Source: a virus
Taxonomy: Duplodnaviria > Caudoviricetes
Reading direction: 5' to 3' (one strand)
IMG/VR virus record: IMGVR_UViG_3300027766_000001
DNA: 64,000 nucleotides
Shown here: piece by piece, positions 54,694 through 54,975 of the stretch
Numbering within the stretch: position 1 is the stretch's first letter
Layout of the letters: each line of letters opens with the position of its first letter
Made by a program: the position numbers and the translations under genes
The notes under the pieces: model-generated
The model's database searches: none
Told to the model about the DNA's origin: nothing
Seen by the model: only the letters and a program-made list of their open reading frames with translations

Positions 54694-54803
54694 TGTCGTT
54701 AGCCTGATGAGTCGCCGACATTAAACGCGACGAAACGTAGAACATGAAATTCATCCACTGAGGATTCACCACCTCGGTGCCCGCTAGGCATGTTCTATGT
54801 AGC
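54694..54803 (+). ncRNA. Type I hammerhead ribozyme candidate with loop II pseudoknot
   Basis: CTGATGA (54704-54710), stem II GTCGC/GCGAC, GAAAC, 12-bp stem III, GTA triplet (cut after 54801), and TGTCG/CGACA pseudoknot. Stem I is only 2 bp. Confidence 0.72.
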
Positions 54804-54975
54804 AGTGAAGATTCATTGACCAAGGTGTCTCGAACTTACACAGCCTTCTGCTCATCGGGTCACTCCCGGTACCAAGGTGAGCAGCGGGGTGTGGTAATTT
54901 GTCCGGTTACTGCGTCAAGGGCTGTAGGGGTATGGTCCTGGTTTTATCCTCAGATGTTCCATGTGAAAGCGGCTA

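Follow-up and report, generated by a model that had tools for sequence, protein, structure and literature searches.

The window, as we call the whole 64,000-nt stretch of viral DNA that was analysed (IMG/VR record IMGVR_UViG_3300027766_000001), carries pieces of the beta subunit of a phiKZ-type multisubunit RNA polymerase together with a tail sheath and a terminase gene, and its nearest database relatives are Salmonella phage SA002 (288 kb) and the Erwinia phages pEa_SNUABM_37/48 (294 kb). Judged from this gene content and these closest relatives, the window is a phiKZ-like jumbo phage. The locus described here sits in a 660-nt gene-free stretch (54423-55083), which is flanked by two small ORFs without assigned function and contains, in this order, two tRNA-like RNAs, a predicted self-cleaving ribozyme and a structured RNA that would begin at the predicted cut. 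A 137-aa ORF just upstream (54009-54422) matches PHROG 8792, a family whose function is not assigned, and its residues 38-101 show a weaker match to the 'integrase'-labelled PHROG 21421.

Three copies of one cassette are present in the window, and relatives conserve it as well: a terminator hairpin with GGGUUUAUGCCG at its end and, about 35 nt further on, CTAYATTAC..GTGAT. This cassette is probably the terminator-promoter element of the phage polymerase and marks the boundaries of transcription units. From the position of the three cassettes, the locus appears to form the 3' end of a unit of ~6.7 kb, to which tRNA-Tyr (53052) and several small genes belong too. The polycistronic unit seems to begin at the promoter-like motif near 48265 and would carry the downstream RNA at its 3' end; at the locus itself, no promoter was recognisable that would belong to this RNA alone.

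The predicted hammerhead ribozyme and its relatives

The element at 54694-54801 is very probably a genuine type I hammerhead, as far as comparative sequence analysis can tell. All catalytic elements are present in the correct order (C3-U4-G5-A6-N7-G8-A9, G12-A13-A14, A15.1-U16.1 and a NUH triplet), and the window holds just one convincing hammerhead core. Seven lineages share the element: the window, L003 (IMG/VR UViG_3300031134_000007, identical to metagenome contig L030), pEa48, SA002, L035 (UViG_3300011242_000002), Erwinia phage AH06, and the Ea35-70 group of Agricanvirus with 16 further records, 15 of which come from Erwinia amylovora phages. A single core was found in every complete genome searched (5/5), always on the same strand and in a syntenic position.

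Core variation across the seven lineages is confined to N7 (U/C) and H17 (A/C), which are free positions in hammerheads, and the cleavage triplet is GUA in four lineages and GUC in three, both of which are permitted NUH triplets. Stems I and II carry compensatory changes: GUCGC/GCGAC of stem II becomes GUUGC/GCAAC in L035, and stem I, which comprises 3-6 bp in the relatives, reads GCAG../..UUGC as compared with GGAGUA/UACUCC in AH06. Stem III is kept in the relatives despite unrelated sequences, with inserts of 26-86 nt. A pseudoknot of 5-7 Watson-Crick pairs between loop II and the strand immediately 5' of stem I is present in all seven lineages, its variable pair being U-A, A-U, C-G or G-C. 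Such pseudoknots are a known tertiary contact in all hammerhead types, and experiments have shown them to be required for fast cleavage (PMC3088659). Core, helices and tertiary contact together place the predicted ribozyme in the hammerhead class; it is unannotated and lies below the Rfam thresholds.

The best Rfam match in the window is Hammerhead_3, with 30.3 bits versus a threshold of 48.5 bits and with the wrong topology, and the relatives reach 28-30 bits. Both the long insert of stem III and the pseudoknot fall outside the Rfam hammerhead models. Because the Rfam match is sub-threshold and wrongly aligned, we relied on the comparison of relatives. The Hammerhead_3 alignment (54690-54741) pairs UCUUUGU with ACGUAGA and makes use of the GUC at 54695-97. 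We rejected this topology, since that GUC belongs to the pseudoknot strand and stem I would be left without room. Within the stem III insert (54747-54788), the blocks CACCA..GUGC.CGCUAGGCAUG are common to the window, L003, pEa48 and SA002; L035 has a shorter hairpin instead.

Two further RNAs accompany the ribozyme on its 5' side. The tRNA-shaped RNA A stands directly upstream of it in every lineage, Agricanvirus included, and has an extended arm with a conserved AACUUAC in its loop and a stem that varies (CCCU/AGGG, GGUA/UGCC, GCGG/CCGC, ACAG/CUGU). The tRNA-like RNA B has a canonical GGGTTCGAGTCCC T-arm and is found in the window, in L003 and partly in pEa48; it is absent from SA002 and L035. 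Coordinates of all features are collected in Table 1.

Table 1. Positions of the predicted RNA elements and associated features in the window and in related records.
Feature	Record	Position	Strand	Remarks
Terminator + CTAYATTAC cassettes	window	48224-48273, 54996-55043, 61350-61388		near 48.2, 55.0 and 61.4 kb
tRNA-shaped RNA A	window; L035; L046	54430-54529; 7372-7483; about 1310-1440		
tRNA-like RNA B	window	54539-54690		
Pseudoknot strand UGUCG	window	54694-54698	+	pairs with hammerhead loop II
Stem I, 5' strand	window	54699-54703	+	here G-C, C-G, mismatch, G-U only; 1-nt deletion
Hammerhead core	window	54704-54736	+	CUGAUGA 54704-10; stem II 54711-15/54727-31; GAAAC, with GAAA at 54732-35
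Loop II pseudoknot partner	window	54716-20	+	within loop of stem II
Stem III	window	54735-54800	+	12 bp (54735-46/54789-54800) plus 42-nt inserted hairpin
Cleavage triplet GUA	window	54799-54801	+	predicted cut 54801/54802
5' tail of released RNA	window	54802-54811	+	stem I 3' strand before the cut; sequence variable among relatives
Hairpin 1	window	54812-54834	+	UUC/GAA and GAC/GUC stems, loop CANGGU; paired in 6/6, one double change
Hairpin 2	window	54844-54888	+	long, irregular; base CUGCUCA/UGAGCAG, variable tip
Hairpin 3	window	54889-54915	+	54889-99 pairs with 54905-15, loop UGUCC; contains TTACTGC
Hairpin 4	window	54918-54939	+	invariant GGGG loop, then U-rich tract 54940-49
Terminator hairpin	window	54968-55010	+	recurrent GGGUUUAUGCCG motif; conserved with covariation
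Agricanvirus ~440-nt RNA	L046 (Erwinia phage AH06)	1662-2103		
Agricanvirus ~440-nt RNA	L047 (Ea35-70)	739-1175		
RtcB, full-length	L048 (pEa48)	91427-92575		E about 1e-128
RtcB, full-length	L049 (Ea35-70)	44597-45745		E about 1e-128

Conservation and predicted fold of the downstream RNA

Comparison of homologues indicates that the sequence 3' of the predicted cut is a conserved structured non-coding RNA. Six distinct sequences of it are available (window, L003, pEa48, SA002, L035 and L021, a contig that ends within the ribozyme), and they share the invariant blocks UGACCA-N-GGUGUCUCGA and GGUAAUUUG-N-CCGGUU and an A-GGGG-U loop, with freely changing stretches between them. No reading frame is common to the homologues, which differ by indels of 1, 2 and 4 nt. 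A coding reading was rejected for this region, as relatives do not conserve the ORF at 54777-54989, whose frame is broken by indels. A leader or riboswitch for the next gene was likewise rejected: a terminator and a promoter-like motif lie between, and the downstream gene varies among the relatives. Ribozyme and downstream RNA remain linked in SA002 and L035, both of which are without RNA B, so that RNA B is dispensable for the ribozyme-RNA unit.

Rfam 15, at gathering and at relaxed thresholds, matched no family to the downstream RNA in the window or in four relatives. The search of 54802-55012, which was run to E values of up to 10 and included Y RNA, YrlA, GOLLD, ROOL and riboswitches, gave a single chance miRNA-like match, located on the terminator hairpin. 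A tRNA cloverleaf, with acceptor stem, D-loop and a 7-nt T-loop on a 5-bp stem beside the acceptor 3' strand, was not found for 54802-54913, ARAGORN and Rfam reporting only the tRNA-Tyr at 53052. With 54802-54967 as query, BLAST found no match in any complete E. coli genome, and obvious mimicry of a host RNA is thus not indicated. In a metagenome scan, the only true locus recovered was identical to L003, and the three remaining matches were due to chance. Of 27 viral 16-mer hits, L003 and L021 are real; the other 25, and all seven hits among genome contigs, came without any other conserved block and were for this reason also judged to be due to chance. A homologue search through the neighbouring 137-aa protein found none.

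RNAalifold, applied to the six sequences, predicts four tandem hairpins; a U-rich tract and then the terminator hairpin lie behind them. The four-hairpin consensus has 95.2% of cells paired and 16 pairs changed on both sides, and none of 500 shuffles scored as high on every measure; as covariation statistics these values are weak, because they derive from six sequences of about four lineages, whose kinship can inflate them and let them beat shuffles without structure. When the partners were slid by 1-3 columns, 37-43% of cells were paired. Thermodynamic z-scores of the downstream RNA are modest (+0.1 to -2.9). Four tandem hairpins are the best-supported fold in this comparison, in which covariation and conservation are established for the ribozyme and for hairpins 2-4. 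Two other pairings that came up were not retained: a local hairpin (54803-08/54813-18) from the fold of a long precursor is not conserved, and a helix that joins the 5' region to the tail ahead of the terminator in some folds could not be aligned across clades.

The hairpins differ in how they vary. All four bases occur at the N of the hairpin 1 loop, and one internal-loop base of this hairpin varies as well. Hairpin 2 shows both-sided changes in 10/16 pairs, with 90.6% of cells paired, and in L021 its entire stem is swapped for a different perfect helix, UUAAUCAUUA/UAAUGAUUAA. The pairing of CTGCTCA (54848) with TGAGCAG (54878), pointed out in an earlier note on this DNA, is borne out as the strongly covarying base of this hairpin. 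The same note had likened TCGGG/CCCGG (54855 and 54865) to the T-arm of RNA B. These letters are in place; the likeness is not supported, as they enclose a 5-nt loop and form the variable tip of hairpin 2, which is seen only in the window. Of its two ACCAAGG(TG) copies (54819 and 54871), both exist, but only the first is conserved and the second is specific to the window. They belong to an exact 9-nt repeat, ACCAAGGTG, at 54819-54827 and 54871-54879 (52 nt apart), and the second ACCAAGGTG falls in the window-specific replacement of the hairpin 2 tip. Hairpin 3 has 100% of cells paired in the six sequences, with five pairs varying on one side and one on both; this variation lies in the 3' strand and is mostly wobble-compatible. 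Hairpin 4 has double changes in four pairs and 94% of cells paired, and was flagged as terminator-like by the scan. It could provide an alternative 3' end, in which case the RNA would stop at ~54948, and the probable 3' end is the terminator at ~55010. The released RNA should accordingly measure about 150-210 bases from 54802.

Agricanvirus phages carry another RNA behind this ribozyme, conserved, gene-free and ~440 nt long, to which the window RNA showed no likeness in blastn-short and nhmmer comparisons. The feature annotated at its place is a hypothetical CDS, read from the minus strand in AH06 and from the plus strand in Ea35-70; the two phages differ there by single-base indels, which argue that neither CDS is real.

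Proposed release of the RNA and competing explanations

We consider the sequence from 54802 to ~55010 (or ~54948) to be a hammerhead-released, conserved non-coding RNA of a small phiKZ-like jumbo-phage clade, and assign this reading a probability of roughly 0.6. Being transcribed first, the pseudoknot-stabilised hammerhead would fold first and cut after A54801, and cutting during transcription is feasible because the polymerase finishes the ribozyme before it reaches the downstream competitor strands. The 5' product would keep nearly the whole ribozyme and gain a 2',3'-cyclic phosphate. The 3' product would be freed with a 5'-OH at G54802, as dictated by hammerhead geometry if the ribozyme is active; in this respect, the coincidence of the RNA's 5' end with the predicted cut, on which the earlier note had built, follows from the geometry of a hammerhead that comparison now supports. 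The freed RNA would then fold into the four tandem hairpins and the terminator, with the invariant loops and internal loops CANGGU, UGNCC and GGGG as likely contacts for a protein or another RNA. Such a pattern, with loops that stay fixed on stems that covary, would fit best with a small RNA that binds protein or contacts other RNAs. RNase E senses 5'-monophosphates and is poorly activated through this sensor by a 5'-OH end, and the released product may for this reason be long-lived. From these features we infer cleavage in vivo, the position of the 3' end, a stable product and an action of the RNA in trans.

The earlier note had proposed another architecture, in which GCAGTGA (54802), the first seven nucleotides after the cut, pairs with TTACTGC (54907) and closes a 112-nt domain, and this helix competes with stem I and thereby promotes product release or tunes cleavage, while the 5'-OH serves as a substrate for RtcB or for circularisation. 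The quoted letters are all in place, and several observations speak for the helix. The 7-bp closure appears in the minimum-free-energy fold computed for the window, where its pairs have probabilities of 0.63-0.78, and the 148-nt fold of L035 includes it in a 5-bp form. A fully complementary 5-mer directly follows the invariant UUUGNCCGG in 5/6 sequences though the 5' pentamer differs (GCAGU, GCAAC, GCAGG), and in pEa48 and SA002 this is the sole such site in the RNA. Forcing the 5-bp form costs 0-4 kcal/mol in five sequences, and in AH06 the stem I strand UUACUCC is found again downstream.

Set against this, a 7-bp partner (G-U allowed) within ~200 nt downstream turns up by chance in 21% of shuffles and for 17% of arbitrary window positions, and the closing helix in register has only 65.7% of cells paired (five sequences). 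The fold z-scores in the window reach no more than -2.2 for 112 nt and -1.8 for 142 nt. Its 5-bp form, present in 5/6 sequences, needs register shifts of 3-4 nt, and L021 has only 4 bp left, at a cost of 8.7 kcal/mol to force. The 3' strand of the helix, moreover, lies wholly inside hairpin 3, where it is paired in 100% of cells. The 112-nt domain is hence not the consensus fold of the family, and the 7-bp helix is at most an alternative conformer in the window's phage; that the distal helix might perhaps be a native conformer is doubtful, if still worth bearing in mind. A proximal partner competes for the same 5' strand, as 54805-10 can pair with 54836-41; this pairing shows three double changes in five sequences and fails in L021. 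The partner of the released 5' strand is therefore ambiguous between the proximal 54836-41 and the distal 54907-13. A competing fold that sequesters the released strand is possible. Product release does not need one, since a stem I of 2-6 bp dissociates unaided, and sequestering the freed strand could discourage reverse ligation.

The ligation part of the proposal fares no better. Two of four complete relatives, pEa48 and Ea35-70, encode RtcB, at a distance of ~100 kb from the locus; the gene was not found in SA002, the complete L035 contig or the window. A second self-cleaving motif, which would supply a 3' cyclic phosphate, was not found by the hammerhead core search or among the Rfam ribozyme families. 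We therefore regard RtcB ligation or circularisation as a weak idea, and the closing-helix architecture as a whole as unlikely.

The ribozyme might alternatively serve the RNAs on its 5' side, giving the upstream mRNA and the tRNA-like RNAs a compact 3' end with a cyclic phosphate. The downstream sequence would then be a trailer and terminator, conserved for termination or for promoter insulation. This would agree with the presence of RNA A next to the ribozyme in every lineage, with the terminator-like appearance of hairpin 4 and its U-tract, and with the fact that the downstream RNA terminates in a generic cassette which is also used elsewhere in the genome. However, a trailer has no need for ~100 nt with invariant loops and three covarying hairpins before the terminator, and the other two terminator cassettes of the window are without such an RNA in front. 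The cut also lies ~100 nt past the 3' end of the tRNA-like RNA, and that end is therefore not matured by it. For these reasons a purpose on the upstream side seems to us rather improbable, and slightly more so than the closing helix. Lastly, stem I in the window, with two Watson-Crick pairs and one G-U the weakest in the family, and a 1-nt deletion that leaves 5 nt between pseudoknot and C3 versus 6 nt in every relative, could betray a hammerhead that is impaired or a relic in this phage, whose RNA would be read through without a defined end at 54802, but this is very unlikely in view of the intact core, stem II, stem III and 5-bp pseudoknot, of an alternative, bulged stem I of 7 bp that the window letters allow, and of a pseudoknotted test ribozyme whose activity fell when stem I was lengthened by two base pairs (PMC3088659).

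Relation to known phage RNAs and implications

A hammerhead-released RNA, our preferred reading, has partial counterparts in other phages. Species 1 and 2 of phage T4 (rnaC, rnaD) are small stable RNAs whose function is not assigned and which are co-transcribed in a tRNA gene cluster; they are processed by host RNases, unlike the release by a ribozyme that we propose here. GOLLD and ROOL are far larger, at roughly 500-800 nt, and to our knowledge no leading ribozyme has been described for them. Like GOLLD (RF01998) and ROOL (RF03087), which often lie beside tRNA genes, the RNA described here is a conserved structured phage non-coding RNA with no function assigned; neither family had an Rfam match at the window locus or in the relatives.

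Natural pseudoknot-stabilised hammerheads were described from bacteria and phages by Perreault et al. 2011, who proposed a role in the processing of long phage transcripts (PMC3088659). The ribozyme of the window resembles these hammerheads (Rfam clan CL00010) in its core, three-stem junction, loop II contact and phage setting. It differs from them in its open stem I, in a stem III insert of 26-86 nt and in its sub-threshold Rfam scores; it is furthermore single-copy and syntenic and heads a conserved non-coding RNA, instead of flanking protein genes. Theta ribozymes, which are minimal HDV-like ribozymes, define the 3' ends of phage tRNAs (Kienbeck et al. 2024, PMC10879173). Here as there, a small ribozyme of a tailed phage would take over from a host processing enzyme in setting where an adjacent structured RNA ends, within a tRNA-rich locus; in contrast to the theta system, the ribozyme is of the hammerhead class, it is the 5' end that would be set, and ARAGORN and Rfam do not recognise the RNA as a tRNA.

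We found no paper in the searchable literature on hammerheads in phiKZ-like or nucleus-forming phages. One Agricanvirus with this locus, RAY, counts among the nucleus-forming phages according to PMC10299810. One could speculate that ribozyme-released structured RNAs are a general, so far undescribed feature of phiKZ-like nucleus-forming phages, in which self-cleavage replaces host RNases that are excluded from the compartment, and that these RNAs, together with the tRNA-shaped ones, work as decoys or scaffolds when the phage takes over its host or counters the host's defences. We consider so broad a generalisation unlikely at present. If it were true, the released RNAs might also serve as ligation partners in those phages that carry RtcB.

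The more restricted reading, a hammerhead-released RNA in a small clade, is of interest in its own right. Most natural hammerheads in DNA genomes are, as far as we know, without a demonstrated job. Here, a single-copy, syntenic hammerhead is placed such that its predicted cut would necessarily make the 5' end of a conserved folded RNA, which suggests a candidate role for a phage ribozyme: to free a small RNA at the end of a long transcript without the need for a separate promoter. The locus would add an uncatalogued RNA family to the phiKZ-like jumbo phages, a group that is under intense study, and if this RNA matters in infection, a ribozyme-dead mutant would offer a clean handle on it.
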